DNA of 64,000 bases, taken from an uncultured Bacilli bacterium (GTDB lineage Bacteria; Bacillota_I; Bacilli_A; RF39; UBA660). Below the pieces are notes generated by a model. The model was not told the DNA's origin. It was given only the letters and a program-made list of their open reading frames with translations, and ran no database searches. Within the stretch, counting starts at the first letter, position 1. Every line of letters starts with the position of its first letter. Made by a program: the position numbers and the translations under genes. Shown here piece after piece: positions 4,939 to 57,289 of this stretch. The DNA lies in assembly GCA_934130545.1 (NCBI GenBank), contig CAKOYD010000002.1:194209-258208 (forward strand). The letters are read 5' to 3'.

Positions 4939-5400
4939 ATGAATAGTTATGATTATAAATATGATGATTATATGAATTCGAATTATATGACTGGTATTAA
5001 TAATATGATGAAGGATAATAACTTTACTAATACTTTTATGACTCCTAGTTATGCACTTGCTAGTACTAAAGAAGGTTTTGTAAAAGGTAATATGTTTAAT
5101 AATCTATATCAAGGATATAAAAACTATACTCCGGTAATGCCTAAAGCAAATAGTCAAAGAGAAATGTTATTAAATAAGTTATTAGAATACAAATTTGCCA
5201 TGATTGATTTAGGACTTTATCTAGATGTTAATCCTAATGATACTAGTTTAATTAATTTATATAATGAATATTTACAAGAAGAAAAAAAATTATGTATGCA
5301 GTATGAAAAAAGTTATGGCCCATTAACTCTAGATAGTATGAATTTAGGTCAAAATAACTGGATATGGGATAATGGCCCTTGGCCTTGGGAGGTAAAATAA
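4939..5400 (+). CDS. cotJB: spore coat protein CotJA-CotJB fusion
   Basis: 153 aa. The C-terminal half (EYKFAMIDLGLYLDVNPNDTSLINLYNEYLQEEKKLCMQYEKSYGPLT) matches the CotJB family. The N-terminal half (ALASTKEGFVKGNMFNNLYQGY) resembles the CotJA motif (ALRKGTLWP.LY.PY). Immediately followed by cotJC with a 1-nt spacer. Confidence 0.7.
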   Translation: MNSYDYKYDDYMNSNYMTGINNMMKDNNFTNTFMTPSYALASTKEGFVKGNMFNNLYQGYKNYTPVMPKANSQREMLLNKLLEYKFAMIDLGLYLDVNPNDTSLINLYNEYLQEEKKLCMQYEKSYGPLTLDSMNLGQNNWIWDNGPWPWEVK

Positions 5401-9935: not shown

Positions 9936-11063
9936 CTATTTGTCATTATCTTTTAAGAATTTTTTATATTTCTTTATAACTGTCGAATTATCTAGTTCAG
10001 TATTTGCTAATGACTCAAATAAACTCTTTTGTTCTTTAGTAAGCTTTTCAGGCATTATTACTTTAACAACAGCATACATATCGCCTTTTCTCTTTGTATT
10101 TACATTTTCAATACCTTTACCACGTAATCTTAATTTATCTAATGATTGTGTTCCACTTGGAATAGTTAATTCAACATTACCATATATTGTTGGTACTTCT
10201 TTAGTACATCCTAATACAGCTTCCGTTATTGTAAGTGGTAAATCTATATAAATATCATCTTCATTTCTCTTATAAAAATCATGATCTTTAACAGTAAACT
10301 CTAAATATAAGTCCCCATTTCTACCACCATTCTCACCAGCTTCACCTTTACCAGTTAATCTTAATCTATTACCATTATCAATGCCAGCAGGTACGGTTAC
10401 TGTAATAGTCTTACTCTTTCTAATCTTTCCTTTACCATTACAGTCAGGACATTTCTTTTCAAATATATTACCTGTCCCGTGACATTCCGGACAAGTTGTC
10501 TTACTAAGAAAACTACCAAACATAGTTCTTTGTTCACTAGAAATCGTTCCACTACCACGACATTCCGGACAAGTTTTAGAATTAAATCCACCTTCACCAT
10601 GACAATTAGGACAATTATCTACTGTATCTAAATTAATATCTTTTTCACAACCATGAACTGCTTCATCAAAGCTAATTGTCATTCGATATAGGACATCATT
10701 ACCTTTTCTCGGACCATTAGCACTTCTTCTAGAATTAGATGAGAATCCAAAACCACCTAGAATATCATCAAAGATGTCCCCCATATCTCCAAAGTCAAAT
10801 CCATCAAATCCTTGGAATCCTCCGGCACCGCCACCATTATTTTGGAAGGCGCTATGACCAAATTGATCATATTTTTTTCTCTTTTCTGGGTCAGACAATA
10901 CGGCATACGCTTCTTGAACTTCTTTAAACTTCTCCGCAGCATTTTCTTCTTTTGAAACATCCGGATGATATTTCTTAGCAAGTTTTCTAAAAGCCGATTT
11001 TATTTCTGCATCAGTAGCTGTCTTTGATACTCCTAAAACCTCATAATAATCTCTTTTATTCAT
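9936..11063 (-). CDS. dnaJ: molecular chaperone DnaJ
   Basis: 375 aa. J-domain ([31 protein letters not shown]), G/F-rich region, and four CxxCxGxG zinc-finger repeats. Confidence 0.95.
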
Positions 11064-11114
11064 CTTTACACCTTTCTAATAAAGTAGTAGTTCTAGTTTC
11101 CTAGAACTACATTT

Positions 11115-12941
<1,827 letters not shown>

Positions 12942-18422: not shown

Positions 18423-20195
18423 TTATTTAACTATATATGGTTCTGTAGCAGTACCTAATCCTCCCCCTGTCACCGTTATCCCTTGTTTAAGTGAAACTAC
18501 AGGGCGCCCACCGAGCGAACCCGTAACGCTGTTTTCGGCGACAATCCCAGAGGAACGCAAATCGATCTCGCCAGCACCCCAGTCGTAGAAGAGAGACGGA
18601 GAAAAGGACCAATTATAAAAACCATTATACAAGTAATATGATGTATTTGTTTGCCATACCACTCCACCTGCAAAAGCCATTTCTTCCGCTGTAATCATTC
18701 CTACTGGATATGTTAACTCGCCATTACCATTATCCGTACTAACTGTAAACTTATCTATTTGTCTTGGACATACTAAACTTAACTTTCTATTTAATAGCCT
18801 TTGAACACTGCCAAAATATAACCACTTATTATAGTTACTGTAATCTTTATTCCAACCACTAGTACTTAAATTATAATATGTTCTATCATTACAAAATCCA
18901 GTATCTTCTAATTGTAATGTATAACTAGTCATATTAGTTTTATACCAAGTATCTATCTTTACTTTAGCATTTGATTCTTTAACATTAATGTCACCTTCAA
19001 ACATTTCATTTAGTAAATCAACTGGTTTCTTACCATTCGTTAGAGTGAAATAGTAAGTATATTTGTCTTCACTATAAATAATGTGTATATAGTATACACT
19101 TTGACAACTAGTACCTGAACTAAAGCAAGTATAATGATATTTGTCAGTATAGTTACTATATTCAGTACCCCAGCTACTTGGATCAGTTAATGTTTTAGTA
19201 TCTTTTAGTGTATATTTCCCTGTACTTGCATCGTACGTAGCATCATTTCCAAACACTATTGAACCTGTTAATGTTGTTATATCTTTGCTTGATGCAGTAT
19301 ATACCGTATTATACATGTATCCAACATATGCCGGAGAATTATAATTTGTATTAAATTGAATATTACCTATCGTAGTAGCACTACCTGTATTATTACATTG
19401 TCCATTAGAAGGTACACCATTATATATTAACTTAACCCCACCTGTTTCTGTTGTTCTTATTATTTTCCAGCAGAAGTTGGCAAATAATACATTATTATCT
19501 ACTGCTCCACGATAGTAATATACTGGTATATTACCTTCGGTATTAGTTGTCATATAGATGCCATTAGTACTACTAGCATCAGATGTTTTACTAAAATCAA
19601 TAGTTGTAGTAGTATCGGCATTATTTTTTATATAATCATATAATGGCTCTCCACCAATTAATACAGTACCATCACTATCTTCTACATCTTTAACTGCTAT
19701 ACCACTAGAAGTTAAATTAGCATTAAACTTCTTACCTAATATATCAGAAGAAGATACAGTATCAGGTATCCATAATTTAATAGTAAATGTTCTAGAAGAA
19801 CCTGGATTTAATATAACATCTCTAATTATTATATTACTATCACTAGACAATATAGCAGGGTTTTCCCCATCCATAGATACTTTAATGAAACTACTATCTA
19901 AAGTACTATTACTCATAGGTTCTAATATAACATTAAACTTATATGCTAAAGTACCTACATTGGTAATAGTAATAGTAGTTTCATTAGAATTCATACCATC
20001 AGTATCACTCATAGGATAAACATTATTTAAGTTTATACTTACATTACTATAACTTAATTTTAATGTACCAGTACTATAATTTTGTACAATAGAACTTACT
20101 TCACTAGTAAATAATGCATAAGTTTCTTTACCAATAGATACAAATAACATTAAAACAATTAATATTAACAATAATTTTTTATTTCTACTATTCAT
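18423..20195 (-). CDS. large secreted protein with a SipW-cognate (TasA/camelysin-type) signal peptide; 3' end compositionally atypical
   Basis: 590 aa. N-terminus MNSRNKKLLLILIVLMLFVSIGKETYALFTSEVSS matches the SipW-cognate signal class (…GTYAYFSDTE…). S/T/N/Y-rich body. The last ~60 codons are GC-rich with atypical codons. Confidence 0.7.
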   Translation of the reverse strand: MNSRNKKLLLILIVLMLFVSIGKETYALFTSEVSSIVQNYSTGTLKLSYSNVSINLNNVYPMSDTDGMNSNETTITITNVGTLAYKFNVILEPMSNSTLDSSFIKVSMDGENPAILSSDSNIIIRDVILNPGSSRTFTIKLWIPDTVSSSDILGKKFNANLTSSGIAVKDVEDSDGTVLIGGEPLYDYIKNNADTTTTIDFSKTSDASSTNGIYMTTNTEGNIPVYYYRGAVDNNVLFANFCWKIIRTTETGGVKLIYNGVPSNGQCNNTGSATTIGNIQFNTNYNSPAYVGYMYNTVYTASSKDITTLTGSIVFGNDATYDASTGKYTLKDTKTLTDPSSWGTEYSNYTDKYHYTCFSSGTSCQSVYYIHIIYSEDKYTYYFTLTNGKKPVDLLNEMFEGDINVKESNAKVKIDTWYKTNMTSYTLQLEDTGFCNDRTYYNLSTSGWNKDYSNYNKWLYFGSVQRLLNRKLSLVCPRQIDKFTVSTDNGNGELTYPVGMITAEEMAFAGGVVWQTNTSYYLYNGFYNWSFSPSLFYDWGAGEIDLRSSGIVAENSVTGSLGGRPVVSLKQGITVTGGGLGTATEPYIVK

Positions 20196-20223
20196 AAACG
20201 TACAATCCTTTCCACAATAAAAA

Positions 20224-20270
20224 TACTATGACAAAAAGAGTCTAATTACTTAAACTCTACTGTCATAGTA
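20224..20270 (-). terminator. terminator-like or attenuator hairpin ~25 nt upstream of the 590-aa gene start
   Basis: On the minus strand an inner hairpin GAGUUUAAG-UAA-UUAGACUC is nested in a perfect 10-bp outer stem (UACUAUGACA…UGUCAUAGUA) and followed by UUUUUAUUG. The inner hairpin plus U-run is conserved upstream of the 36611..40201 gene. Confidence 0.55.
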
Positions 20271-20295
20271 TTTATTATTTAAACAAACAACTGTA

Positions 20296-20355
20296 TTATT
20301 TAGCCCCACCCCCAAGTAAACTTGGAGTTAACTTATATATTACCATTTTATTCAT
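20296..20355 (-). CDS. putative leader uORF (MNKMVIYKLTPSLLGGGAK) spanning the G tract
   Basis: ATG lies 9 nt after an AAAGGAGUU Shine-Dalgarno-like element. The RBS-to-ATG spacing is conserved in the paralogous leader at 40244..40348. It may be non-coding because the RBS is predicted to pair in a conserved stem. Confidence 0.3.
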   Translation of the reverse strand: MNKMVIYKLTPSLLGGGAK

Positions 20356-20441
20356 AATTTTTAACTCCTTTCTAGCAAACATTTGTTTACTGTACTATTT
20401 ACTTGAGAAGAATTCTTGTTTGCTCTTCTTATTTTAAATTA

Positions 20442-20470
20442 ATTATAAACTAAATTATCTCTATATGCAA
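20442..20470 (-). promoter_or_regulatory. sigma-A promoter driving leader A and the 590-aa gene
   Basis: Minus strand TTGCAT-17 nt-TATAAT, about 80 nt upstream of the uORF. Immediately downstream of the XRE regulator gene. Confidence 0.6.
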
Positions 20471-20498
20471 GATATTTTAATAATAAAATTATATTAAA

Positions 20499-20771
20499 TT
20501 ATTCTTCATCATTAAAAAACTCTTTAATATCTATATCTAGTGCCTCAGCAATTCTACCTAATACTGAAATAGTAAAATGTTTATTTCTCTTATCATTTTC
20601 TATATCACTAATATATTCTCTTGATAAATCAGTCATATCTGCTAAATCTTGTTGCGTTAAATTATTACTAGCGCGATACTTTTTAATATTCTTTCTAATA
20701 ATATTATAATAGTAATTATCATTATTAATATATTTCTTAGGCTTAATAGTTTTATACAACATATACTTCAC
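20499..20771 (-). CDS. XRE-family helix-turn-helix transcriptional regulator
   Basis: 90 aa. LTQQDLADMTDLSREYISDIENDKRNKHFTISVLGRIAEALDI is a Cro/C1-type HTH. The true start may be internal. Confidence 0.7.
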   Translation of the reverse strand: MKYMLYKTIKPKKYINNDNYYYNIIRKNIKKYRASNNLTQQDLADMTDLSREYISDIENDKRNKHFTISVLGRIAEALDIDIKEFFNDEE

Positions 20772-28859: not shown

Positions 28860-30536
28860 TTAATTAAAATAATTTAATATATCATTAACTAATATTTCTT
28901 TAATTTCTTTAGTTTTTCTATCCTTAACTTCTACTATTCCCTCGTTTACTTTCTTACCAACTACTATACGATAAGGAATACCAATTAAGTCCATATCTTT
29001 AAACTTAATGCCTGCTCTCTCATCACGATCATCTAATAAACAAGAAACATTATTCTTATTAAAATAATCATATAAACTATTAGCAACATTTACTTGTTCT
29101 TCATCTTTATTATTTATAATAACGATACTAACTTTATAAGGAGCTATATTAATAGGCCATATAATACCATCTTCATCATTATTTTGTTCTACTATTGCTG
29201 ACATACATCTAGCTACTCCAATACCATAAGAACCCATAACAACAGGCTTTAAAGTATTATCTTTATCAACATATCTAAGATTTAATGCTTCAGAATACTT
29301 CGTACCTAACTTAAATGTATTACCTACTTCAATACCTTTCTTAAAGTATAAAATACCACCACATTTAGGACAATGATCTCCTTCCATAACATTAACTATA
29401 TCACTAGCCATATCATACTTAAAATCAGATAAATTAACATTAATATAATGATAACCATTACTATTTGCACCCACTACAAAGTTAGTCATCTTAAGTACTT
29501 CATTATCTACTATAACCTTACAATTAATACCAACAGGTCCTAAAGAACCAAACTTAGCGTCTACTATCTTTGCAACTTCTTCTTCGGTAGCAAACTCTAC
29601 ATCCATACCATGAAGTAGTTTACCAACCTTAACTAAGTTTAACTCTCTCTTACCACTAATAACACACGCTACTAGTTCTCCATCAACATTAACTATCATT
29701 GTCTTAGCCATCTTATCAAGTGATATATTTAAATAATTAGCTACATCTATTACACTTTCATATCCTGGTGTACTAACTTTCTCCATAGCCTTCTTTTCTT
29801 CTCTAACCATGTCATGTCCAACTACTTCAGATACTTCTATATTAGAAGCATAATCACACTTATCACAAAGAACTACCACATCTTCACCAATATCTGTAAT
29901 AGCCTGAAACTCCTCTGACAACAAACCACCCATAACACCAGTATCTGCTCTAACAATACGATAATCCATTCCCATCTCATCAAATATCTTCTTATAAGCA
30001 TCAAACATCTTCTTATAAGACTTATCCAATCCCTCTAAATCAGCATCAAATGAATAAGCATCTTTCATACAAAACTCTCTTGTCCTAATTAAACCATATC
30101 TAGGCCTTGCTTCATCTCTAAACTTATTTTGAAATTGATATAAATTAAATGGCATATCTTTATATGATTTAATCTTACTACCTGCTGCATTTAAGAATAG
30201 TTCTTCATGAGTAGGCCCTAAAACATAGTTCTTATTAGCCCTGTCAACTAATGAAAACATACTACTACCAAATGCTTTTCTTCTTCCAGAACTAACATAA
30301 ACTTCTTCTGGAATTAAACTAGGCATAACTAATTCTTGAGCCCCTGCTTCATCCATATATTTCTTAACAATACTTCTAATATTACTAAATACCAAATATC
30401 CCATTGGCATAAACATATACACTCCCGCACTACTCTTCTTAATCATTCCACTTCTAACAAGCAAATTACCACTTACTGTCTCTTCATCTTTAACATCTTC
30501 TCTAATTGTATAAAAAAACGAATTACTTAATCTCAT
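28860..30536 (-). CDS. proS: proline--tRNA ligase (bacterial type, with INS editing domain)
   Basis: 558 aa. Class-II aaRS motifs plus a YbaK-like insertion. N-terminus MRLSNSFFYTIRED is typical. Confidence 0.92.
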   Translation of the reverse strand: MRLSNSFFYTIREDVKDEETVSGNLLVRSGMIKKSSAGVYMFMPMGYLVFSNIRSIVKKYMDEAGAQELVMPSLIPEEVYVSSGRRKAFGSSMFSLVDRANKNYVLGPTHEELFLNAAGSKIKSYKDMPFNLYQFQNKFRDEARPRYGLIRTREFCMKDAYSFDADLEGLDKSYKKMFDAYKKIFDEMGMDYRIVRADTGVMGGLLSEEFQAITDIGEDVVVLCDKCDYASNIEVSEVVGHDMVREEKKAMEKVSTPGYESVIDVANYLNISLDKMAKTMIVNVDGELVACVISGKRELNLVKVGKLLHGMDVEFATEEEVAKIVDAKFGSLGPVGINCKVIVDNEVLKMTNFVVGANSNGYHYINVNLSDFKYDMASDIVNVMEGDHCPKCGGILYFKKGIEVGNTFKLGTKYSEALNLRYVDKDNTLKPVVMGSYGIGVARCMSAIVEQNNDEDGIIWPINIAPYKVSIVIINNKDEEQVNVANSLYDYFNKNNVSCLLDDRDERAGIKFKDMDLIGIPYRIVVGKKVNEGIVEVKDRKTKEIKEILVNDILNYFN

Positions 30537-31090
30537 ACTATCCTCTTCCTTACTTTAACATTATCTTTATCTAAACTATTCATATAATTATTTAGCTCTC
30601 TAAATGACATACCATACGGAACATCAAAGAACTCTGTAACCGTACTCCAACGCCCATCACTAACCATAATAAAGAACTTACTAATACTACTAATAGCTTC
30701 TTCATAACTATCAAACTCATGTATACCTAATTTTTTCAAATTACAATTCTCTATATGATAAACTTTACCATTTAAAAAATAAAGTATAAAACAATGCATA
30801 TAAACATTATATCTTGTTACATTACTATCAGCTTCATACTCTCTTATACAAAACATTCTACTAGGTATATCAAGTCTATCTAATAAATACTTCATTAAAT
30901 ATGTTTGTTCAATGCAACAACCCATCTTATGTTCTAAAACTTCTTCCAAACTAGAAGTGCGATAACATGCTCTAAAGCCAATCATATCACCAACATGTTC
31001 CTTATCCATATAATCAAGCCATCCATACTTTATATTTGTTCTTATAAATTCTAAAACATCTTTAGGTGTCTTAATTGCTGAAAAATCCAT
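30533..31090 (-). CDS. hypothetical protein with Cys/His residues suggestive of a papain/transglutaminase-like fold
   Basis: 185 aa. GCCIEQTYLMKYLLD and a downstream His. Family assignment is uncertain. Confidence 0.35.
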   Translation of the reverse strand: MDFSAIKTPKDVLEFIRTNIKYGWLDYMDKEHVGDMIGFRACYRTSSLEEVLEHKMGCCIEQTYLMKYLLDRLDIPSRMFCIREYEADSNVTRYNVYMHCFILYFLNGKVYHIENCNLKKLGIHEFDSYEEAISSISKFFIMVSDGRWSTVTEFFDVPYGMSFRELNNYMNSLDKDNVKVRKRIV

Positions 31091-31213: not shown

Positions 31214-31290
31214 GGGGAATTAGCTCAGTTGGCTAGAGCATCTGCCTTGCACGCAGAGGGTCAAGGGTTCGAGTCCCTCATTCTCCACCA
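31214..31290 (+). tRNA. tRNA-Ala (anticodon TGC)
   Basis: Cloverleaf with G3:U70 Ala identity pair, anticodon loop CTTGCAC, GTTCGAGTC T-arm, 3' CCA encoded. Confidence 0.95.
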
Positions 31291-31292
31291 TT

Positions 31293-31369
31293 CGGAAAGT
31301 GGCTCAACTTGGTAGAGCACTTGGTTTGGGACCAAGGGGTTGCAGGTTCAAATCCTGTCTTTCCGACCA
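31293..31369 (+). tRNA. tRNA-Pro (anticodon TGG)
   Basis: Acceptor CGGAAAG/CTTTCCG, anticodon loop TTTGGGA, GTTCAAATC T-loop, CCA encoded. Lies 2 nt after tRNA-Ala. Confidence 0.9.
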
Positions 31370-36610: not shown

Positions 36611-39600
36611 CTATTGCCAACAATAACTATCGTTTAATTTAGTATATCCACTAGCACATGAATATGTTGTTACTGTTGTTCCTGATGTATATATTTTACA
36701 TGACTTATTTACAAGGTATCCACTTGAGCAAGAATAAGCATATGAACAATTATTACTACTAAGAGTATATCCAGATGGGCAATTTGCACCACCAGAATTA
36801 GCACAACTATATTGTGTTACCCTTCCAGTACTAGTTCGCTTACAATAAAAACTTCCTGTAAGATGACTATTAGCACTAGTATAATAATAACATCCGCCAC
36901 TATCTTGTAGATTACTACCACAATCTTCATAAGAACTTGCTGTTGTATTCGCTACTGTACCACTACATGTATTAGTATTACCAGCTCCATCTTTTACATA
37001 GAAAGTATATGTCTTTGCTCCTGTTATTGTACCAGTACTACTATTACTGCCACTATATGATGAACTCCAACCATAGTATGCTAGACCACTTCCTCCTTCA
37101 TCAGAATATGTGGCAGTTATTGTTGTACCACTAGCACTTAATGTACATTTTGGTCTAATTGTATCGATAATAATCCAGTGAGCATATAACGTTGTATCTG
37201 ATGTTTTATCCCAATCTCTTACACTTTGACCACTACTATTATAATATTGTGTTCCACCACTTGCTGAGTCATAATAACCGGCAAATGTATATCCAGTCAT
37301 AGTAGGTAAAGTTATATCAGGATAACTACCTTGTTTAGTACCATGAACAATAGTAGTTGAGTCAGTACCTCCTGTACCACCATTCTTATTGAATGTTATA
37401 GTATATACTTTAGCTGTCCAATAAGCATATAGTGTATGATCACTAGCATTGGATACTATAGTATCACTTGTTACTCTAGTACCTGTACCATTTTCTCCCG
37501 TATACCAACCGCCAAATGAATAACCTGCTTTTATTGGTGTTGGCATATCACCATATTTTTGACTTTGTTGAACAGTTCTGTTTATACTAGTCAGAATTAT
37601 TCTAGCTGCTCCATTACCAGTCTTAACATAATTACTAACAGAATTCCCGGAAATATTAGTTGTAGAATATGTTTTAGTACTTGTTGCATCAGAAGTTGCG
37701 CAATTATAACAATACATATATTTATCAGTAAGCAGTGAATTGCCAATATAACCAGAACCACCTCCGCCAGGAGCAATGTGTCCACTTCGTGATCCACCAT
37801 AAAAACCACCGCCTCCGCCAGTAGTAGCCCAATCACTTCCACCGCCTTGGCCGAATGACCCAGTAATAACACCACTATTTACTTCGCTTGCTCTATTACA
37901 ATCACTTGTTATTTTACCTCCGGCGGTCTGAGTTCCGCCAAGGCCTACACACCATTGATTATCTTCAACACTGGATTCATCTCCAGAATTACCTATGTAT
38001 CCACCACCGGAACCACCACGTAATCCATATGTTCCAACATTTTCACCATAGTAAGATCCACCGCCTCCGCCAGAAACAATTAATATATTTGATAGGCTAG
38101 ATGATAATGATGATAGTAATCCAGACTTTGTAGCAATATGAGTCGCTCCACCGCCGGAACCAAATGATCTATTGCAGCATGCCTGGCCTCCTGTTGAACC
38201 ACCACCATTATATCCACCCACAATATTCTCTAACGTTCCAGACGAGGTTCTGCTTCCCTGGCCTCCAACATTAACATATAAAATATCACCTGAGTTTAAT
38301 GTAGTCGTTCCTTGTGAATATCCCCCATAACCACCAACAGTACCATCTATTGTTGTTCCTCCTTGAGCACCCCATGTTTCAAGTTTATATGTTCCAGTAT
38401 ATGGGACTGTGTAAATATTTTCTTTGGCCTCTGTAAATGTTGAAATAACATTATAACTTCCACCGGCAACATCAAAAGTTACATTTACAGTTTTATTCCA
38501 TTTAGCATACAAAGTATGATTATTGGCAATAGTTATTACTGTATTCTCATCTACTTTAGTACCTGCCCCATTCTCACCAGTATACCAACCACCGAAAGTA
38601 TATCCTTCTCTAGTTGGGGTTGGTAATTCACCATATTTGTCTTTATAAGTTACATTATAGTTGGTGTCACTTATTAATGTAACTCTAGCTGCTCCATCAC
38701 CGCTTTTAGCGTAATCAGTAGTTGGTGTCGCTGAAGCATTGGTAGTTGTATATGTCTTAGTATCGGTAGCATCAGATGTTGTACAATTATAGCAATACAT
38801 ATATTTATTAGCAAGTAATGAATTGCCTATGTAACTGGATCCACCGCCACCGCCACCATTCCTAGCAGAACCGCCAGCTCCACCGTATAGACCACCGCCT
38901 CCACCGCCAGCTCCGTGCTCAAAGCTTGCTTCGTATCCACCTTGGCCTCCTAATCCAAATTGTCCAACTGTACCAGTAACACTTCCAGAGCCAAGGGTTC
39001 CTCCGGAGGTTTGTGTACCGCCACCGCCACCGCCTTGGAATGAACTACTATTGTGTCCACCGGTGTTACCCTGTATCCCACCGCCTGAACCACCTATCTC
39101 ATTTGCATTAAATACTCCAGTACCACCGCCGCCGCCTGAAACTATCAGGATACTTGATAGAGAGGATGATAAAGACGACAATAAACCTGTCTTTGTTGCA
39201 ATATGGGTAGCACCACCCCCAGTTCCTGCACTGTAATTTGCATTTCCACCACCATTATATCCACCAGTAGTAAATGTACTTTCAGCATTAGAACTTACGC
39301 CTTGACCTCCGACATTAAGATATAAAATATCTCCTTTTTTTAATGAAACAACTCCAGTAGAGTAACTACCATAACCAATTTGAGTTGTAGAATATTGGCC
39401 GCCTTGGGCTCCCCAAGTTTCTAATTTATAATCACCAGTATATGTTACTTTGTAAGTATACTCTTGCGGTTGGGTGTATGTAACAGCAAAATTACCTCCT
39501 GCTAAGTCTAAACTAACTGTTATATTTTTAGGTTCAAACACTACTTCACAATTAACATTACTTGTTATATTAGATATAGTTAAGATATTATTAGATACTG

Positions 39601-40201
39601 TTCCTTCACATGTTGTTGATTTATATTGATAACCATCATTAGGTGCTAAAGTATATTTAACTGTACCATTCTTAGTAGATAATTTAATATTAGGTTTTAC
39701 TTTACCGTAAGTATTATTATTAGATTTAACTATTGCTTTATAGTATACATCTTTATTTATGCCAGTACTATTGCTAGGTAATTCTAATATTTCTTTTTCA
39801 AAACCTACTATATCTTTAATACTTACTGTTGTATCAGTACTACTATTATTTTGAATAAATACTTTAACTAGATTAGTATTCTTACTATTAAGTACTCCAC
39901 TAGTATCTGTATCACTTATATTAATTATACTAATATTAGAGTTTACTCCTTCTAAATAAAGTAGATATGACATATTAAATTCATTAGGATTACTTATTTT
40001 AATATCTACTATTTTACTATCATAACTAGGTATTAATATATCTCTATTAGTTCTATCACCTAAAACTATATTAAATAGATAATCTGCTTTACTACTATTA
40101 CCTTCGGTAATGGTAGTATCTATTGCAAATGTTCCTATTAGAGAAATAACTCCTATTATAAATATCAAAAATAATCCTATATATATTGTCCTTTTTTTCA
40201 T
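36611..40201 (-). CDS. giant secreted glycine-rich surface protein: signal peptide, duplicated Gly-rich module with Flg_new (Listeria-Bacteroides) repeats, and a Cys-rich C-terminal module shared with the pilin-like protein
   Basis: ~1196 aa from ATG 40201 (AGGTGG RBS; the ORF track uses GTG at 40213). N-terminal signal MKKRTIYIGLFLIFIIGVISLIG. Two ~345-aa tandem copies (YKLETWGAQGG…GGATHIATK.GLLSSLSSSLS.ILIVSGGGGG…YMYCYNC…GY.FGGWYTGENG.GT.V…HTLYA.W). A third Flg_new repeat. C-terminal ~200 aa Cys-rich tail. Confidence 0.8.
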   Translation of the reverse strand: MKKRTIYIGLFLIFIIGVISLIGTFAIDTTITEGNSSKADYLFNIVLGDRTNRDILIPSYDSKIVDIKISNPNEFNMSYLLYLEGVNSNISIINISDTDTSGVLNSKNTNLVKVFIQNNSSTDTTVSIKDIVGFEKEILELPSNSTGINKDVYYKAIVKSNNNTYGKVKPNIKLSTKNGTVKYTLAPNDGYQYKSTTCEGTVSNNILTISNITSNVNCEVVFEPKNITVSLDLAGGNFAVTYTQPQEYTYKVTYTGDYKLETWGAQGGQYSTTQIGYGSYSTGVVSLKKGDILYLNVGGQGVSSNAESTFTTGGYNGGGNANYSAGTGGGATHIATKTGLLSSLSSSLSSILIVSGGGGGTGVFNANEIGGSGGGIQGNTGGHNSSSFQGGGGGGTQTSGGTLGSGSVTGTVGQFGLGGQGGYEASFEHGAGGGGGGLYGGAGGSARNGGGGGGSSYIGNSLLANKYMYCYNCTTSDATDTKTYTTTNASATPTTDYAKSGDGAARVTLISDTNYNVTYKDKYGELPTPTREGYTFGGWYTGENGAGTKVDENTVITIANNHTLYAKWNKTVNVTFDVAGGSYNVISTFTEAKENIYTVPYTGTYKLETWGAQGGTTIDGTVGGYGGYSQGTTTLNSGDILYVNVGGQGSRTSSGTLENIVGGYNGGGSTGGQACCNRSFGSGGGATHIATKSGLLSSLSSSLSNILIVSGGGGGSYYGENVGTYGLRGGSGGGYIGNSGDESSVEDNQWCVGLGGTQTAGGKITSDCNRASEVNSGVITGSFGQGGGSDWATTGGGGGFYGGSRSGHIAPGGGGSGYIGNSLLTDKYMYCYNCATSDATSTKTYSTTNISGNSVSNYVKTGNGAARIILTSINRTVQQSQKYGDMPTPIKAGYSFGGWYTGENGTGTRVTSDTIVSNASDHTLYAYWTAKVYTITFNKNGGTGGTDSTTIVHGTKQGSYPDITLPTMTGYTFAGYYDSASGGTQYYNSSGQSVRDWDKTSDTTLYAHWIIIDTIRPKCTLSASGTTITATYSDEGGSGLAYYGWSSSYSGSNSSTGTITGAKTYTFYVKDGAGNTNTCSGTVANTTASSYEDCGSNLQDSGGCYYYTSANSHLTGSFYCKRTSTGRVTQYSCANSGGANCPSGYTLSSNNCSYAYSCSSGYLVNKSCKIYTSGTTVTTYSCASGYTKLNDSYCWQ
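37430..39500 (-). repeat. internal tandem duplication (~1.05-1.08 kb unit, two copies) inside the giant gene
   Basis: Nucleotide-level similarity at ~1082-bp offset (for example 37688-37770 versus 38770-38850). The protein shows two co-linear ~345-aa modules. Boundaries are approximate. Confidence 0.7.
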
Positions 40202-40225
40202 AATTAACACCACCTATAGACATGA

Positions 40226-40252
40226 CAAAAAGAGTCTAACTTCTTAAACTCC
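40226..40252 (-). terminator. terminator-like or attenuator hairpin ~25 nt upstream of the giant gene start
   Basis: Minus strand GGAGUUUAAG-AAG-UUAGACUC followed by UUUUUG. Conserved with the hairpin at 20238..20257. The uORF stop codon UAA lies inside the 5' arm. Confidence 0.5.
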
Positions 40253-40348
40253 TTCTTTATGCTTATAATAAAAACAAACAAATGTATTACTTATACCCCC
40301 CCCCCATGTAAACATAGAGTTAACGCTTTTTCTTAATATTTTATACAT
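40244..40348 (-). CDS. putative leader uORF (MYKILRKSVNSMFTWGGGISNTFVCFYYKHKEGV) spanning a G10 tract
   Basis: ATG lies 9 nt after AAAGGAGUU, the same geometry as the uORF at 20296..20355. The stop codon sits inside the terminator-like hairpin. May be non-coding. Confidence 0.3.
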   Translation of the reverse strand: MYKILRKSVNSMFTWGGGISNTFVCFYYKHKEGV

Positions 40349-40422
40349 AATCATTAACTCCTTTCTACATAGGAAGAAATACCTTGTTTGTTTATCTCCT
40401 ATCTTCTACTAAATTATAGCAC

Positions 40423-40451
40423 ACATCATTTTATTTGTCTATTAGTTAAAA
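40423..40451 (-). promoter_or_regulatory. sigma-A promoter with extended -10 driving leader B and the giant gene
   Basis: Minus strand TAGACA-17 nt-TGcTATAAT. Confidence 0.55.
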
Positions 40452-43571: not shown

Positions 43572-43600
43572 AGTTAGGCCAACAAAAGCCTAACTTTTTT
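43572..43600. terminator. bidirectional terminator between rpsD and the convergent polysaccharide locus
   Basis: GTTAGGC-CAACAAAA-GCCTAAC stem-loop followed by TTTTTTCT. Flanked by A-run and T-run. Confidence 0.7.
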
Positions 43601-44084
43601 CTATTTCTCTATCAATTAAATCAATCATATTATCAGTATTACTCTTAAACTTCTTGGGTTTAAATTTAGAAGATTCTTTTATTAACTTATCAATATCATC
43701 AAAGTTATCTAACTTTAATATATATCCTTCTTTAGAAAAATTATCTATTATTTGTAATTGATGATCATTCACATGCTCATTATATTTACTTAAACGAGCT
43801 GCCGCAATTACCTTTTTATTATTTTTTAAACCAGTTATAATCGAACCTACACCACCATGTGTTATCAATAAATCACATTTCTTTATCATCTCATCAAACT
43901 CATCCATGGGTATTAAATCAAATATTTTCATATACTTTGACTTAAAATCTGCTGAACAACCTGCTTGAACAACTACTTCATCATCAATCAAATGTTTATC
44001 TAACTTATCTTCAAGAGCCTCTAGTATTCGATAAAATTGTTTATCTTGTGTACCTAACGTAACTAATATCATTAATAAATCCAC
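43590..44084 (-). CDS. Alg13-like glycosyltransferase C-terminal subunit (Cps14G/EpsF-type UDP-sugar transferase partner)
   Basis: 164 aa GT28 C-terminal-like domain (…THGGVGSIITGL…). Paired with the upstream Alg14-like gene. Confidence 0.65.
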   Translation of the reverse strand: MDLLMILVTLGTQDKQFYRILEALEDKLDKHLIDDEVVVQAGCSADFKSKYMKIFDLIPMDEFDEMIKKCDLLITHGGVGSIITGLKNNKKVIAAARLSKYNEHVNDHQLQIIDNFSKEGYILKLDNFDDIDKLIKESSKFKPKKFKSNTDNMIDLIDREIEKS

Positions 44085-44881
44085 CCCCCATATATTGCTT
44101 TAGGATATAACTCTAACATACTTTCCCATTGTACTACAAAAGTATTAGCAATCGGGTATACTAACTTACCAGCTACGGTCTTAGTAGTACTATTAGCAAA
44201 CGTCTCAATAAATATAACCTTACTACCAAGAATGCGTCCTATATAACACATTGGCACGGCCGTATGCGTACCAGTAGTTACTATAGCATCTGGTCTTATC
44301 TTTAAATACAATATAAAAGATTTAATAATATTAAAGGAAAATATAAAGAAATAAGTAAATAAATTCTTTTTAGTACCATATACTAAATAACTAACATTAT
44401 TATATTTATCTTTTAAATTCTTATTAGACTTCGTCTTTTCAGTAATTAAATAACTATCATACTTTGTAATCAATGGCTTTAACTGTAATAATTCATTCAA
44501 ATGTCCACCTGTACTAGATATAAATATAACTTTCTTTTTATCATTCTTTTTAAATAATAAAGTAAATATATAACATAATACCAAATCTATAATTATAACT
44601 ATTGATTTTAATAATACACTATTCTCTATTCCAAACAAAGTTATTAATATATTCATAAGTATTATATCTACTAAAAATACTACTATTCCACTAAATATAA
44701 ACTTATTTATTGAACTCATAACCTTATATTTTTTATTAATAAAATAACATATTATTACTCCACTAATAAATGATATAACACTAGCTAATCCCCAACTCAT
44801 ACTATCTATACATAGATAATATACACCAAAGCATAAAACTCCTACGCCAACATAGCACATTAATTTACTTAATTTCTTCAT
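44072..44881 (-). CDS. GtrA-like 4-TM domain fused to an Alg14-like glycosyltransferase membrane-anchor subunit
   Basis: 269 aa. N-terminal 4 TM helices (GtrA-like) followed by an Alg14/Cps14F-like domain (VIFISSTGGHLNELLQL). Confidence 0.6.
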   Translation of the reverse strand: MKKLSKLMCYVGVGVLCFGVYYLCIDSMSWGLASVISFISGVIICYFINKKYKVMSSINKFIFSGIVVFLVDIILMNILITLFGIENSVLLKSIVIIIDLVLCYIFTLLFKKNDKKKVIFISSTGGHLNELLQLKPLITKYDSYLITEKTKSNKNLKDKYNNVSYLVYGTKKNLFTYFFIFSFNIIKSFILYLKIRPDAIVTTGTHTAVPMCYIGRILGSKVIFIETFANSTTKTVAGKLVYPIANTFVVQWESMLELYPKAIYGGWIY

Positions 44882-44893
44882 AATAATTTCTCC

Positions 44894-47380
44894 TTACCTA
44901 TTTAATATTTTATAAACAATATTAGCCATCTTTTTATTAAACATAATCAAATATATTCCTTTAGCATTAGTATAAAAATACTTATTTAATCTATATTTAG
45001 GAAAATTACTTTTGACATTTAAAATTGCCGTATCAACAGCAGCATCAAATTCATCTTTATTAAAATGAGCAGCTTGTTTAATAAAAGTAGCATATAAATA
45101 CCTTACATAACAATACTCAAGTTCCTTTTTGTAATTATTATATATACCTCTATCTTTATAAAATACTATTAAGTCATTAAAATTATCAACATAATTATAT
45201 AATCTTTTATCAAAAGTTTTAGTAATCGAACCACTTCTTTGTACATACTGATTAAGGGGTTCTTTTACCACACCAATATTATTAATATAAGGAAATATTT
45301 TATATAAAAAGTCAACATCTTCAAACCATACACCTTTTTTAAACTCAATCTTCTTACTAAATAATTCTTTCTTATATATCTTATTCCAAACACAAGGATA
45401 CATATTTACATAAGTCTTTTTAATATTTGTAGTATCCATTTCAATTTTAGAACTAACTCTTTTTATGCTTCCATCTTCATAAACATAATTTAAATCACAT
45501 ACAACAACATCAAAATTACCTGATATAGCTTTATTATACATTTTTTCATACATATCTATAGAAACGAAATCATCACCATCAACAAATGCAATATAATCTC
45601 CTTTGGCTTCCTTAATTCCAAAATTTCTAGCATCACTAACACCACCATTTTTCTTTATGTAGCTATGGATAGTACTATATTTTTTAGCATACTTATCTAT
45701 AATACTTTGACTATTATCTGGGCTTCCATCATTAACTACTATTATTTCTATATCTTTAAGAGTTTGATTAACTAAACTATCTAAACACTTATCAATATAC
45801 TTTTCTACATTATATACCGGTACGATAACACTTACCTTAGGATTTTTTGATTTCTTTACCATATTTACCTCACTAACATTTTCTTTACCTATTACATATT
45901 TTAATTTATCATGTCTTACAAAAGAAAGCAAGTACCCGCTTATAAAAGCAAGTGGTATTGTAACTATTAATTCATCTAAAACATGTCCACTAAAATAAGA
46001 TATTCCTAAACAAACATATACTGATATGACAAGCATAGTTGTCTTTAATCTTAATCTTCTCTTTAGTAGCATATATATTCCTGAATAAGTTGCAATTACA
46101 ATATAAGGCCCAAATAGTAATAATATACCAATTATTCCGATAGTATAATAATGTACTGTAAAATCACTTTCTATATATATTTCTGCTATTCTATATCTAG
46201 AATAACCTTCCCCAAAATACTTATCATACTTATTATTATTTAATGAATATATTCTATTAGTAATAAGTTTTTCTAACTTACGATTTCCCCCTCTTTCACT
46301 ATAAGGAAGTTTCATAACATCTATCCAAAAATCTATATCTTGTTCATAAGGATATAAATCATAAATATATGTCTTAGGAATAGAATAATATTCAAAATAC
46401 TCTTTAATAAATTCTTCTTTTTCTTCTACAGTACGCAAATTATGTAATGATTCATTAACAGTATCTTTATTTTCCATACCATTTTCTATTTCTTCATAAT
46501 CAGTAACTGTATATCTTAAAATTAATGGTGAATTAAGAGTTATAAATCCTAATACCATAAAACATGATATATATAATAATATCTTTTTTAAAGTTATTTC
46601 GACTTTATTTTTATCAATAAGTGCAAAAAATATCCATGCTATAAACATAACTACACTAACAATAGCCCATCCATATACTGCTACTCTCGTTCCTATCATT
46701 ATCATAGCCAAACATAAAGTAAGTGAAGATATAAAAGCTTTCTTATTAGAAAATCTAATAGCATAATATATGTTTATTGGTAATATTAATATTGTTAAAG
46801 CACTTATCTGATTAGCCATATAAAAGTACCCTTTTGAAGCTAGTTGTTCAAATGTAAAATCTTTATTTAAAAACCAGTCAAATATATTACCCGCTATAAA
46901 ATGAGGCTCTCCATAAGAAACTAAAGATATCTTAAATATATTAGTAATTATTATCTCTAAAGAAATAATTAATGATAATACCACAATACTCTCTCTAAAT
47001 GCCTCTTCTGTTATCTTAGCTTTATAAACTATATATATAAGCATTAAAGGTAATAACAATCTTATATAATAAAAAGCTTCTGTTATATATGAAAAATTCA
47101 TAACGGAATTTATTCCAATATTAAAATTAAGACTATTAATAACATGGCCTATCAAATAGACAAATAATATAGCCAAATACCCCGCTATAAACCAGTGCTT
47201 CTTATCATTCTTCGTATTTATTAATGTTATTATAAAAAATACAAATATAAATATAATTCTAATTATTGTTGAAGGAGAAAATTTAAATATCCTAGTAACT
47301 TTTTCACTATATAATAAATAGAAATCTAAAAATGGTTGTATTATTAAAAATATAAATAGTGCTTTATCTATTTTCTTCAT
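44894..47380 (-). CDS. fusion of a polytopic Wzy/O-antigen-ligase-like membrane domain (~480 aa) with a C-terminal GT2 glycosyltransferase
   Basis: 828 aa with about 10-12 TM helices. The C-terminal part has KVSVIVPVYNVEKYIDKCLDSLVNQT…VVNDGSPDNS…DGDDFV GT-A motifs paralogous to the two other GT2 genes in the locus. Confidence 0.65.
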   Translation of the reverse strand: MKKIDKALFIFLIIQPFLDFYLLYSEKVTRIFKFSPSTIIRIIFIFVFFIITLINTKNDKKHWFIAGYLAILFVYLIGHVINSLNFNIGINSVMNFSYITEAFYYIRLLLPLMLIYIVYKAKITEEAFRESIVVLSLIISLEIIITNIFKISLVSYGEPHFIAGNIFDWFLNKDFTFEQLASKGYFYMANQISALTILILPINIYYAIRFSNKKAFISSLTLCLAMIMIGTRVAVYGWAIVSVVMFIAWIFFALIDKNKVEITLKKILLYISCFMVLGFITLNSPLILRYTVTDYEEIENGMENKDTVNESLHNLRTVEEKEEFIKEYFEYYSIPKTYIYDLYPYEQDIDFWIDVMKLPYSERGGNRKLEKLITNRIYSLNNNKYDKYFGEGYSRYRIAEIYIESDFTVHYYTIGIIGILLLFGPYIVIATYSGIYMLLKRRLRLKTTMLVISVYVCLGISYFSGHVLDELIVTIPLAFISGYLLSFVRHDKLKYVIGKENVSEVNMVKKSKNPKVSVIVPVYNVEKYIDKCLDSLVNQTLKDIEIIVVNDGSPDNSQSIIDKYAKKYSTIHSYIKKNGGVSDARNFGIKEAKGDYIAFVDGDDFVSIDMYEKMYNKAISGNFDVVVCDLNYVYEDGSIKRVSSKIEMDTTNIKKTYVNMYPCVWNKIYKKELFSKKIEFKKGVWFEDVDFLYKIFPYINNIGVVKEPLNQYVQRSGSITKTFDKRLYNYVDNFNDLIVFYKDRGIYNNYKKELEYCYVRYLYATFIKQAAHFNKDEFDAAVDTAILNVKSNFPKYRLNKYFYTNAKGIYLIMFNKKMANIVYKILNR

Positions 47381-47388
47381 ATATCCTC

Positions 47389-49505: not shown

Positions 49506-49515
49506 ATATCCTCCA

Positions 49516-52085: not shown

Positions 52086-52088
52086 ATA

Positions 52089-55633: not shown

Positions 55634-57289
55634 CTATTTTTTATAACAATAACTATCATTTAATTTAGTATAATCACTTGGACAAGTATAAGTATTAACT
55701 GTTGTACCAGATGTATATATTTTACACGACTTATTTACTAATGACCCACTTGTACAATAATAATCAGTAATCGTTGTACAATTATTACTATAAAATGTAT
55801 AACCACTTGAACAAGAAAGTGTAGAATTTTCTTTACCTGCACAATTATTTTCTTCCACAGCATTAGAAGTTTTACTCTTACAAACATAAGTCCCAGTATA
55901 ATGCTTCTTTGTATTAGCACTAGAATAATAATAACAACCACCGGAATCACTGCTATAGTTTCCACAATCTTCATAACTACCCTTTGTAGTTTCAATTATT
56001 GTTGCACTACAACTATTAGTATTACCAGCAGTATCCTTAACATAATATGTATGAGTACCAATACCTATATTTCTACTAGTACTACTATCACCACTATAAG
56101 ATGAATTCCAACCATTATACATTATTTGACTCATATTATCACTAGATATTGCTGTAATCGTACTAGTATTAACATTTAATGTACAACTAGGAACAGTTCG
56201 ATCAATATAAATATTAACTTCTATCTTACTACTATTACCAGCTTCATCTATTGCTTCAATAATAGCCTTTCGATTACCATTTCCGGATAATGTCTTAGAA
56301 CAAGCATTATTACAATTAGCCCCACTATTACTAGGAGTATCCCCATTAACACTACCTTCACTATTATAAGTCCATTTAATCACTGCATTTTTATCCGTAC
56401 TAATATCAAACCAATACCCATAATTTTTCCATTCATTAACTACATAATTACTACTAGTATTAGTAATAAACTCTCCCTTACTCTTAGGAGTATTTCCTTC
56501 ATAACTACCTATCTTATAAATACTAAGACTAATTACAGGTGGATTACTGTCAAATATTGCATCAATGTTTTTAGTTGCTTCTGCTACATTCGCTCCACTA
56601 TAATTAATAAAAGCTGATACTACACCATTAGATTTAACACTTAATCTAACTACTTCACTATTTGCTAAATACCAATGACCTGACTCCAAATTATTAACAG
56701 TATTGTTACTACAACTACCTATACTATCACAAGCATATACTATATCATTAGTAGTAACAGTATTTTCACTAAATCCAGATATATAAAAGTATCTATAATA
56801 ATCACTACCTAAAGTATTATATAATATCTTAGCATTCGTCATATTAACATTTTTACCCTTATTATCTGTAGAAATTGATATACTAGATTGATATCCACAA
56901 TCAACATCAGGTAAAATACTATCTTCAAAAGAAAAACTAGTCTCTTTAATAACTTTACTATCTTTATCTCTAATTACTTTTATCATTGTACCCTTAGAAA
57001 ACTTATCATTCTCATCAATAACTTTTTCATCAAAATACCCAATCTCTATCATATTACCTAATGATATACAACTATATTCATAATTATCTTTAACATTCCA
57101 ATAACTAGATACTTCATCATTATATACTATAGCGGCACTCTTAATATTATTATAAGTAATTAACTTAGCATTATCTTTTGCCTTATTAATGTTTTTCATT
57201 ACTATATATACTGTAACACTTAAAACTACTCCAAGTATAACTACTGTACTTAATAATTCAACTAAAGTAAATCCATTCTTCTTTTTCAT
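55634..57289 (-). CDS. type-IV-pilin-like (prepilin N-methylation signal) protein with a ~500-aa C-terminal extension ending in the shared Cys-rich module
   Basis: 551 aa. N-terminus MKKKNGFTLVELLSTVVILGVVLSV is a class-III (prepilin peptidase) signal with Glu+5. The C-terminal ~200 aa are co-linear with the giant protein's C-terminus (…YYVKDTAGNTNSC…GSYEDCG…DSGGCYYY…SGSLVNKSCKIYTSGTTVNTYTCPSDYTKLNDSYC). Confidence 0.75.
   Translation of the reverse strand: MKKKNGFTLVELLSTVVILGVVLSVTVYIVMKNINKAKDNAKLITYNNIKSAAIVYNDEVSSYWNVKDNYEYSCISLGNMIEIGYFDEKVIDENDKFSKGTMIKVIRDKDSKVIKETSFSFEDSILPDVDCGYQSSISISTDNKGKNVNMTNAKILYNTLGSDYYRYFYISGFSENTVTTNDIVYACDSIGSCSNNTVNNLESGHWYLANSEVVRLSVKSNGVVSAFINYSGANVAEATKNIDAIFDSNPPVISLSIYKIGSYEGNTPKSKGEFITNTSSNYVVNEWKNYGYWFDISTDKNAVIKWTYNSEGSVNGDTPSNSGANCNNACSKTLSGNGNRKAIIEAIDEAGNSSKIEVNIYIDRTVPSCTLNVNTSTITAISSDNMSQIMYNGWNSSYSGDSSTSRNIGIGTHTYYVKDTAGNTNSCSATIIETTKGSYEDCGNYSSDSGGCYYYSSANTKKHYTGTYVCKSKTSNAVEENNCAGKENSTLSCSSGYTFYSNNCTTITDYYCTSGSLVNKSCKIYTSGTTVNTYTCPSDYTKLNDSYCYKK

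Follow-up and report, generated by a model that had tools for sequence, protein, structure and literature searches.

TasA-type signals, exchangeable modules and a common, putatively phase-variable leader in a surface-protein family of uncultured human-gut Bacilli

Three genes for predicted surface proteins lie on the minus strand of a 64,000-nucleotide (nt) stretch of DNA, hereafter the window, from an uncultured Bacilli bacterium (GenBank assembly GCA_934130545.1, contig CAKOYD010000002.1, positions 194,209 to 258,208). They are p590, encoding a protein of 590 amino acids (aa) (18423..20195, protein start MNSRNKKLLLILIVLMLFVSIGKETYALFTSE); the giant gene, whose open reading frame (ORF) extends in full over 36611..40213; and a pilin-like gene encoding 551 aa (55634..57289). 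The original prediction treated the three as a family diversified by module exchange and governed by a common cis-regulatory element. Comparison with other genomes and metagenomes places p590 and giant, with high confidence, in a modular family whose members have a common 5' leader, and draws attention to a G tract within that leader.

The p590 protein consists of a signal peptide (aa 1-~26), a TasA-like N-domain (aa ~27-180) and a C module (aa 181-590), a division drawn from AlphaFold2 (AF2) modelling, Foldseek and BLASTP comparison with its 120 best relatives, the last of which set the border between aa 1-180 and aa 181-590 and resolved sub-parts of the C module at aa ~179-298 and 404-589. 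No Pfam family was matched by p590 at E<=0.01, and neither the whole protein nor any sub-domain matched Pfam or NCBIfam at E<=10. An AF2 model built with 50 family members in the alignment reached a predicted local distance difference test score (pLDDT) of 89, with low confidence in the first ~15 mature residues (segment aa 24-42) of the monomer. When this model was compared with the PDB by Foldseek, the top match was the TasA fibre determined by cryogenic electron microscopy (8aur_A, E 4.2e-4, probability 1.0), and the TasA-like archaeal bundling pilin 7ueg was also near the top. Template-modelling scores to TasA-fold structures were low (0.31), and the relationship is therefore remote. In profile comparison by hhalign, for which the TasA sequence used was checked to be that of 8aur_A, the p590 N-domain aligned with TasA over 77 collinear columns at 31% identity (E 2e-4, probability 46%), spanning the signal peptide, the cleavage region (GGTWA↓AF against KETYA↓LF), a GTLxLS motif and the strands that follow. 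A sequence-profile search of the PDB with the 50-sequence p590 family alignment returned nothing at E<=1. Model and profile together support a remote likeness of the p590 N-domain to TasA, in its fold and, weakly, in its profile.

Paralogs of ~608 aa carry a second kind of N-domain, here type B, with the signal ...GGTFAY[YL]TTS; it differs from type A of p590, yet the two types are homologous by hhalign (probability 99.3%, E 1.5e-20). The N-domain of giant, type C, has 10 close homologs. Its AF2 model, built on 11 close homologs, reached a pLDDT of only 45.5 and was not used for a fold search, and hhalign gave no match between this domain and TasA. BLASTP similarity between p590 and giant was absent at E<=1, and profile-profile comparison of their N-domains went no further than the signal peptide with its G-T-[FY]-A cleavage motif (29 columns, probability 54%). 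The TasA-like character that the original prediction had assigned to the N-domains of both proteins is thus confirmed for p590 alone, and homology by profile methods extends between types A and B and from p590 to TasA, but from p590 to giant not beyond the signal peptide.

Relatives of p590 gave more than 3,800 matches in a word-indexed search, and its C-module family comprises 5,732 clusters (50% identity) at E<=1e-3, of which 1,206 are retained at E<=1e-30. The 410-aa C module (18426-19655, minus strand; relatives P0121-P0268) occurs in proteins of 200-4,900 aa. In relatives of ~800 aa it is present twice by BLASTP, and in larger ones Pfam recognises DUF6273, VWA, Flg_new and ALK glycine-rich domains. 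Judging from these searches, the C-module family is large, under-annotated and partly overlapping with DUF6273, and has no Pfam model that reaches p590.

The link to DUF6273 concerns the C-terminal sub-domain of p590 (aa ~403-590, 18426..18989). Its last ~190 aa aligned by hhalign with the stretch of P0121 that Pfam calls DUF6273 (probability 100%, E 1e-46), and a Foldseek search of BFVD with the p590 model returned DUF6273 phage proteins at E 8e-5. No match to the C module was found in the PDB, either by Foldseek or by sequence-profile search, and the Pfam model of DUF6273 (PF19789) gave no match to aa 401-590 at E<=10. Because the hhalign score is strong but the Pfam model is silent, we regard the p590 C-terminus as a divergent relative of DUF6273 and not as a scored member. 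DUF6273 domains fold like C-type lectins, and in phage receptor-binding proteins they are often diversified by diversity-generating retroelements (DGRs) (PMC10743442). Homology and structural match together therefore indicate a putative ligand-binding role, and the DUF6273-like C-terminus of p590 points to ligand binding.

The likely true start of giant, from the starts of its relatives and from gene calls in other assemblies, is an ATG (MKKRTIY) that gives a protein of 1196 aa (36611..40201). By Pfam and sequence reading it comprises a signal peptide with a GTFA↓ID motif, the N-domain, two ALK/LTK glycine-rich cassettes, three Flg_new repeats and a Cys-rich C-terminal module (36611..37174). 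An exact-sequence look-up of the 1196-aa protein returned no record, and its orthologs were reached via the neighbouring RNase J gene. As had been predicted, the C-terminal module is common to giant and the pilin-like protein: aa 1014-1200 of the giant ORF and aa 366-556 of the pilin-like protein are 55% identical over 193 aa by BLASTP (E 5.6e-48), and the DNA is 68.6% identical over 481 nt. The module has 19 homologs; among the 8 of 19 that were read, all 4 full-length proteins (~315-325 aa) have a type IV pilin-like N-terminus (KGYMLVEI), and giant therefore bears a pilin-associated module grafted onto a protein with a TasA-type signal.

The pilin-like protein itself has a prepilin N-terminus, a globular part and the Cys-rich module (aa 366-551, nt 55634-56194). 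It matches PF07963 (N_methyl) at E 1.4e-6, with 28 bits against a cut-off of 21.2, and has the prepilin site KNG↓FTLVELL. Near the gene, no pilus-assembly genes (pilB/C/D/M/N/O) were found; its neighbours are radC, UPF0029, uvrC, hsp20 and ABC transporter genes. Upstream alignment and a profile search (nhmmer) over the window showed that it lacks the family leader described below, and the gene is tied to the p590/giant family only via the common C-terminal module. In the metagenome-assembled genome (MAG) CAKPNA01 the pilin-like ortholog (L023, 6089-7909) appeared as several gapped tblastn pieces, as might be expected of a pseudogene or of a mosaic that has diverged.

Exchange of modules is seen both among paralogs and from strain to strain. 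The 995-aa relative P0041 joins a part matching giant aa 5-574 (63% identity) to a part matching p590 aa 185-590 (79% identity). The locus order efp, helix-turn-helix (HTH) gene, family gene and small-exporter gene is syntenic elsewhere, with 99-100% aa identity for efp and 96-99% for the HTH protein; the family gene at this position has a type A N-domain in the window and at locus L032 and a type B N-domain at L009 and L052, and the L009 gene has a C module 78% identical to that of p590 despite its type B N-domain. At L063, where the flanking RNase J is 100% identical and the leader is the same, the giant ortholog has 992 aa. Compared with giant of the window it is 98% identical over aa 1-236 and 86% over the last 246 aa, with 39% identity in the glycine-rich cassette, which is present once there and twice in the window. 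At L006 a p590-type and a giant-type gene lie side by side, each with a leader of its own. The modules of the family are thus a TasA-type signal with an N-domain of type A, B or C; glycine-rich and Flg_new cassettes; and a DUF6273-like, lectin-type or Cys-rich C module. Of the original proposal of a module-exchange family under a common cis element, the mosaics and the leader on TasA-signal members bear out the greater part; the pilin-like gene, which has no leader, falls outside it.

Some observations at these loci stand by themselves. The XRE-type HTH gene (90 aa, 20499..20771 in the window by Pfam scan), which lies between efp and the p590 leader, holds the same position at L009, L032 and L052 despite the differing N-domain types downstream; it may be a local regulator or merely the stable flank of a recombination hot spot. 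A role as general regulator of the family was rejected, as the gene is present only at this one syntenic locus. Downstream of the 992-aa giant variant, L063 has a 538-aa protein with a weak DnaJ match (10014-11630) where the window has mraZ, so the region 3' of giant has also been rearranged between strains. Contigs often break off within the giant gene or its leader, or shortly beyond (L065, L066, L068-L070), a sign that assembly of family genes may suffer from repeats or from mixed strains.

The upstream regions of p590 and giant align over ~190 nt within a leader of ~200 nt, in agreement with the original prediction, and a 30-nt core of the leader occurs exactly twice in the window (0 expected). 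A profile made from 26 leaders (nhmmer) found only these two copies in the window, at 20219-20440 (E 1e-46) and 40217-40405 (E 7e-38). Leaders elsewhere were located in one-genome-per-species references by an exact 25-nt hairpin pattern, which matched at 28 places. MAG CAKPNA01 (Hadza stool, 'uncultured Bacilli bacterium') accounts for 18 of them, 'Bacillales bacterium UBA6414' for 6 and related MAGs for 2; the other 2 are chance matches (L021 and L031, where the rest of the leader is missing), leaving 26 true copies. In metagenome contigs a second pattern gave 17 matches, comprising 12 more true copies and 5 by chance; a more specific one had given 0. Wherever the ORF downstream of a true leader could be read, it belongs to a type A, B or C gene that encodes a TasA-type signal and lies 16-55 nt further on. 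Each member with such a signal has a promoter of its own along with the leader.

From 5' to 3', the parts of the leader are a sigma-70-like promoter, a pyrimidine tract (UUUCUUCC), a strong Shine-Dalgarno (SD) sequence (AGAAAGGAG), an ATG and a short ORF with the G tract, then UAAAUAAUAC, UGUUUGUUU, a spacer, a long hairpin with U-runs and finally the structural gene's own SD. At p590, the promoter-like region and leader occupy 20196..20470, with the leader ORF (MNKMVIYKLTPSLLGGGAK-stop, 20296..20355) preceded by the SD and containing an interrupted G tract (GGGGGTGGGG, 20304..20313). A terminator-like hairpin follows at 20225..20269 (outer stem ACTATGACA/TGTCATAGT, inner stem AGAGTTTAA/TTAGACTCT, internal and trailing U-runs), with a predicted folding free energy (dG) of -23.6 kcal/mol. 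At giant, a promoter (TAGACA-17-TG-TATAAT, 11 of 12 matches in a promoter scan) and leader occupy 40202..40441; the leader ORF has 34 codons (MYKILRKSVNSMFTWGGGISNTFVCFYYKHKEGV-stop, 40244..40348) and stops within the 5' arm of the hairpin, which, with its U5 run, spans 40222..40256 (predicted dG -12.4 kcal/mol). Across the family the hairpin has the outer stem ACUACGAUA/UAUCGUAGU and the inner stem AGAGUUUAA/UUAGACUCU, with predicted dG between -12 and -24 kcal/mol. The promoter elements TTGCA...TATAAT are conserved in the alignment of leader copies, and in the p590 region the consensus promoter scan was silent.

The peptide of the leader ORF, which ends ...L-T-[PL]-S-L-L-G-G-G..., is conserved among paralogous leaders, the variable 5' part of the ORF almost never has insertions or deletions, and the differences in the last codons of the p590, L004 and L005 leader ORFs are synonymous. 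Gene callers of other assemblies list it as a gene of 34 or 39 aa when it stands in the long frame that runs into the hairpin (L006, 5864-5983; L053-L064, for example L063, 6783-6887). At L022 (~5053-5327) the start ATG of the leader ORF has become ATA and the outer hairpin stem is largely missing; this leader may be a decayed or differently regulated copy.

The G tract ranges from G7 to G13 over 42 leaders, with a mode of 10-11. By run count, the G10 of giant (40296..40305) is the sole G or C run of at least 7 in the window, where ~0.003 C10 runs would be expected (plus strand as given). Tract lengths differ between near-identical leaders: L004 has G10 and L005 G11, with an early stop in both; L043 has G11 and an early stop, whereas L052 has G10 and reads into the hairpin; and L011 (G13) and L013 (G11) differ in frame. 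Among orthologs of the giant leader in 10 assemblies with identical RNase J, the tract is G10 in 8 and G9 in 2, the frame changes accordingly, and the two G9 assemblies form a distinct strain lineage.

Exactly one reading frame is open from the tract into the hairpin in 39 of 42 unique leaders; it stops at a TAG in the 3' arm (+13) in 29 copies and at a TAA in the 5' arm (+5) in 10. The remaining two frames end 24-54 nt short of the hairpin, at stops supplied by UAAAUAAUAC. Although the +5 and +13 classes differ in spacer length, the arrangement of one open frame is kept in both. Computed on the sequence, a change from G10 to G9 or G11 moves the stop from +5/+13 to about -42 relative to the hairpin. 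The read-in frame is currently occupied in 13 of 39 leaders. Interrupted, stabilised tracts stand in the read-in frame in all lineages that have them (L006a/b with L038, L008, L048, and L041 with L049) except p590, in which the interrupted tract is fixed in the early-stop frame.

We infer that this G tract in the leader ORF just upstream of the terminator-like hairpin, which formed no part of the original prediction, best explains the leader. That family genes are phase variable through the poly-G tract is probable on the evidence of tract lengths and frames. A specific mechanism, entry of the ribosome into the terminator, can be proposed more tentatively, and we would not yet bet on it. Slipped-strand mispairing would alter the length of the tract and so put the leader ORF into another frame. 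In two of the three frames the ribosome would halt 24-54 nt ahead of the hairpin, which would then form and terminate transcription (OFF or low); in the third it would enter the hairpin, stopping at +5 or +13, and block its folding, so that transcription could reach the gene (ON). In this genome giant, with G10, would be ON, and p590 would be in the early-stop frame. Paralogs would switch independently, giving a variable surface repertoire, in which N-domains of types A and B may polymerise or anchor in the manner of TasA/BsaA while lectin-like and Cys-rich modules may bind ligands.

Several points weigh against this account. On the protein side, the family as a whole stays below the curated thresholds for TasA, BsaA and the SipW signal. 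The NCBIfam TasA model reached only E 0.11, below its cut-off; BsaA (TIGR04090) scored 18.6 bits against a cut-off of 60, for a B-type paralog only; and the SipW-cognate signal (TIGR04088) scored 12.8 bits against 19 for a B-type paralog and did not match p590 or giant. The SipW-cognate motif of the original prediction was not upheld, then, and its observation that the window holds no sipW-type peptidase was: no ORF with an S-x-S-M-x-P / GDN signal-peptidase-I motif is present in the window, and none, hence no sipW gene near family members, in the 428 kb formed by the window and the family loci. Pfam scans of part of the window ORFs, including several in the size range of SipW, contained no S26 peptidase. 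On the leader side, the inner stem of the hairpin has only 2 G-C pairs and a terminator scan requiring at least 3 flags none of the leader hairpins, a silence owed to the AU-rich stems. All eight assemblies of one lineage have G10, so consensus tract lengths are fairly stable. The p590 gene is intact and identical in 22 contigs, an awkward finding if its early-stop frame means permanent OFF. In Bacillota transcription often runs ahead of translation, and attenuation that depends on the ribosome is uncommon. The distinction between ON and OFF could be blurred if the polymerase slips, or the ribosome changes frame, on the G run. Finally, the G tract is predicted to pair in a stem that hides the leader SD and may thus act as RNA structure.

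This last point leads to the strongest competing explanation, that the leader is a structured regulatory RNA, an attenuator responsive to a ligand, protein, small RNA or temperature, with the G tract as the helix strand paired with UUUCUUCC. The short ORF would then be incidental or a landing pad for ribosomes, and tract length would tune the stability of the helix and not the frame. Minimum free energy (MFE) folds of nearly all copies do contain the same nested stem, made of AAACAAACA:UGUUUGUUU, pyrimidine tract:G tract and GGAGUUAA:UUAACUCC, the last hiding the leader SD; 91% of its cells are paired, against ~50% when the partners are slid, and variant pyrimidine tracts (ACCUC) can still pair with the G residues. 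Against this, these helices show almost no covariation (RNAalifold, pair counts); the outer hairpin stem has a few compensatory changes. With copies that are such close paralogs, covariation lends little support, a weakness that the poly-G account has in common with this one, and the RNA structure of the leader stands as a prediction. In Rfam 15 only two tRNAs reach the gathering score in the window, and 20150-20520 is empty at E<=10. A c-di-GMP riboswitch was considered and dropped. No mutually exclusive antiterminator was found in MFE or consensus folds, where only a weak TTAACTCY:AGAGTTTAA complementarity could be seen by eye. A purely structural role would in addition leave the indel-poor 5' ORF, its synonymous last codons and the one open frame in 39 of 42 leaders unexplained, and this explanation seems to us unlikely.

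A second alternative places the action at the RNA level: slippage of the polymerase or ribosomal frameshifting on GGG would give each cell a fixed mixture of frames and a set level of expression, with no heritable ON and OFF states. Slippage of the polymerase and frameshifting are both favoured by long homopolymers, GGG codons are expected to be rare at 27% GC, and such a mixture would explain how p590 can be intact and yet stand in the early-stop frame. However, the p590 tract is interrupted, which should lessen slippage, and length differences that alter the frame are seen in the DNA of near-identical copies, so that we consider this explanation quite improbable. Equally improbable is ordinary paralogy, in which genes were duplicated with promoter and 5' untranslated region, domains are alike through shared ancestry and the G tract drifts neutrally, with no part in switching: the leader copies are indeed closely related paralogs and G10 is stable over eight assemblies of one lineage, but a G10-13 run is far from the neutral expectation at 27% GC, the tract keeps its position in ~40 leaders with a variable flanking spacer, conservation of the ORF and of the arrangement of frames speaks against neutrality, and mosaic exchange between strains with identical flanks exceeds what duplication would give.

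Weighing these, we lean slightly towards the view that p590 and giant belong to a large family of paralogs in human-gut Bacilli of ~27% GC, which encode secreted surface or matrix proteins of modular build and have phase-variable leaders. A bolder version, in which the device of poly-G tract, leader ORF and terminator switches ~20 paralogs per genome, all TasA-like fibre subunits with exchangeable modules that form a combinatorial, antigenically variable fibre coat, is possible but rather doubtful. The original prediction is confirmed in its observation and partly supported in its interpretation. If the poly-G reading is true, a gut commensal that is common but uncultured, and present in human metagenomes including those of the Hadza, varies its repertoire of adhesin-bearing, TasA-like proteins by the logic of contingency loci; simple sequence repeats (SSRs) gain a new read-out, in which a terminator responds to the frame of a leader ORF; and TasA-type domains, known as single matrix proteins, also serve to carry binding modules that can be swapped. 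Independently, the C-module family, with its more than 5,700 clusters at 50% identity and no Pfam model reaching p590, is flagged as very large.

The window has a G+C content of ~27%, its minus strand carries nearly all genes and GC skew is strongly negative throughout; two tRNA genes on the plus strand (31214-31366) run opposite to almost all others. The p590, giant and pilin-like genes are set among housekeeping genes (efp, rpsB, RNase J, the mraZ/rsmH cell-division cluster, radC and uvrC). Between giant and the pilin-like gene lies a polysaccharide-synthesis cluster (43590-53084, minus strand) with Alg13/Alg14-like genes, an O-antigen-ligase-like protein fused to GT2, and GT4, GT2 and flippase genes. 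A 185-aa ORF (30533-31090, minus strand) has no Pfam family at E<=1e-3.

Among known systems, the proteins resemble TasA, BsaA and camelysin (the tapA-sipW-tasA operon of Bacillus subtilis, the bsa operon of Clostridium perfringens and archaeal bundling pili), whose signals likewise end in G-x-T-[FYW]-A followed by an F/T-rich stretch. The TasA fibre and the archaeal bundling pilin have the fold closest to the p590 N-domain, which is collinear with the N-terminal 80 residues of TasA. A donor strand is expected to be of low confidence in a monomer model, as is the mature start of p590 (PMC9674648, PMC11580942). BsaC carries VWA domains (PMC11580942), and some relatives of p590 bear them too. 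The family differs in failing the curated hidden Markov models and in that no sipW or tapA neighbour was found; in that the TasA-like domain forms only the N-terminal quarter of much larger proteins with lectin-like or glycine-rich modules; and in having dozens of paralogs, each with a phase-variable-looking leader, where TasA has one operon.

Two further likenesses concern the C-terminal modules. The last ~190 aa of p590, homologous to the DUF6273 stretch of P0121 and similar in structure to DUF6273 phage proteins, recall the variable proteins of C-type-lectin fold such as phage 'tentaclins' and DGR targets (PMC10743442), with the differences that p590 is below Pfam detection and that diversity here arises by paralogy and exchange of cassettes. 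A general Pfam scan of window ORFs contained no DGR reverse transcriptase among those scanned. The 551-aa pilin-like protein, with its prepilin N-terminus and additional C-terminal modules, recalls modular type IV pilins. Such pilins exist with grafted adhesive modules, for example PilB/PilC of Streptococcus sanguinis. Here, in contrast, the Cys-rich module is also found on giant, a non-pilin with a TasA signal, and pilus-assembly genes are not nearby.

For the leader, text searches of the literature found no described case that combines a repeat in a leader ORF, a terminator-like hairpin and a surface-protein family, and its parts are best compared one at a time. Leader-peptide attenuators (trpL/hisL, ermC/cat) likewise have a short ORF with SD followed by a U-run hairpin before the gene, and here too the place of the ribosome would settle what becomes of the hairpin; they differ in that an antiterminator was not found here, that the proposed input is a heritable change of frame and not amino-acid supply or an antibiotic, and that the ribosome would melt the terminator directly. 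The surface protein CwpV of Clostridioides difficile is phase variable through post-initiation control by a leader terminator, switched via site-specific DNA inversion by a recombinase (PMC2784873). The likeness lies in a gut Firmicute surface protein whose expression would be decided by terminator formation in the 5' leader, and the difference in the proposed switch, which would be a slipped-strand change of the G tract read by the translating ribosome, with no inversion. A similar logic is that of SSR contingency loci (the poly-A promoters of Mycoplasma hyorhinis vlp, Neisseria opa/pilC, poly-G in Campylobacter), which likewise have a homopolymer at a fixed position in many surface-protein paralogs; as in these, the tract is long enough to be hypermutable (at least 8; G10 at giant), lengths differ between near-identical copies and a minority stand in the putative ON frame. 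In the present family the tract is found neither in a promoter spacer nor in the structural gene; it belongs to a leader ORF of its own, which a terminator-like hairpin follows. Contingency loci are best known from pathogens and mycoplasmas, whereas the host here is an uncultured gut Bacilli commensal.

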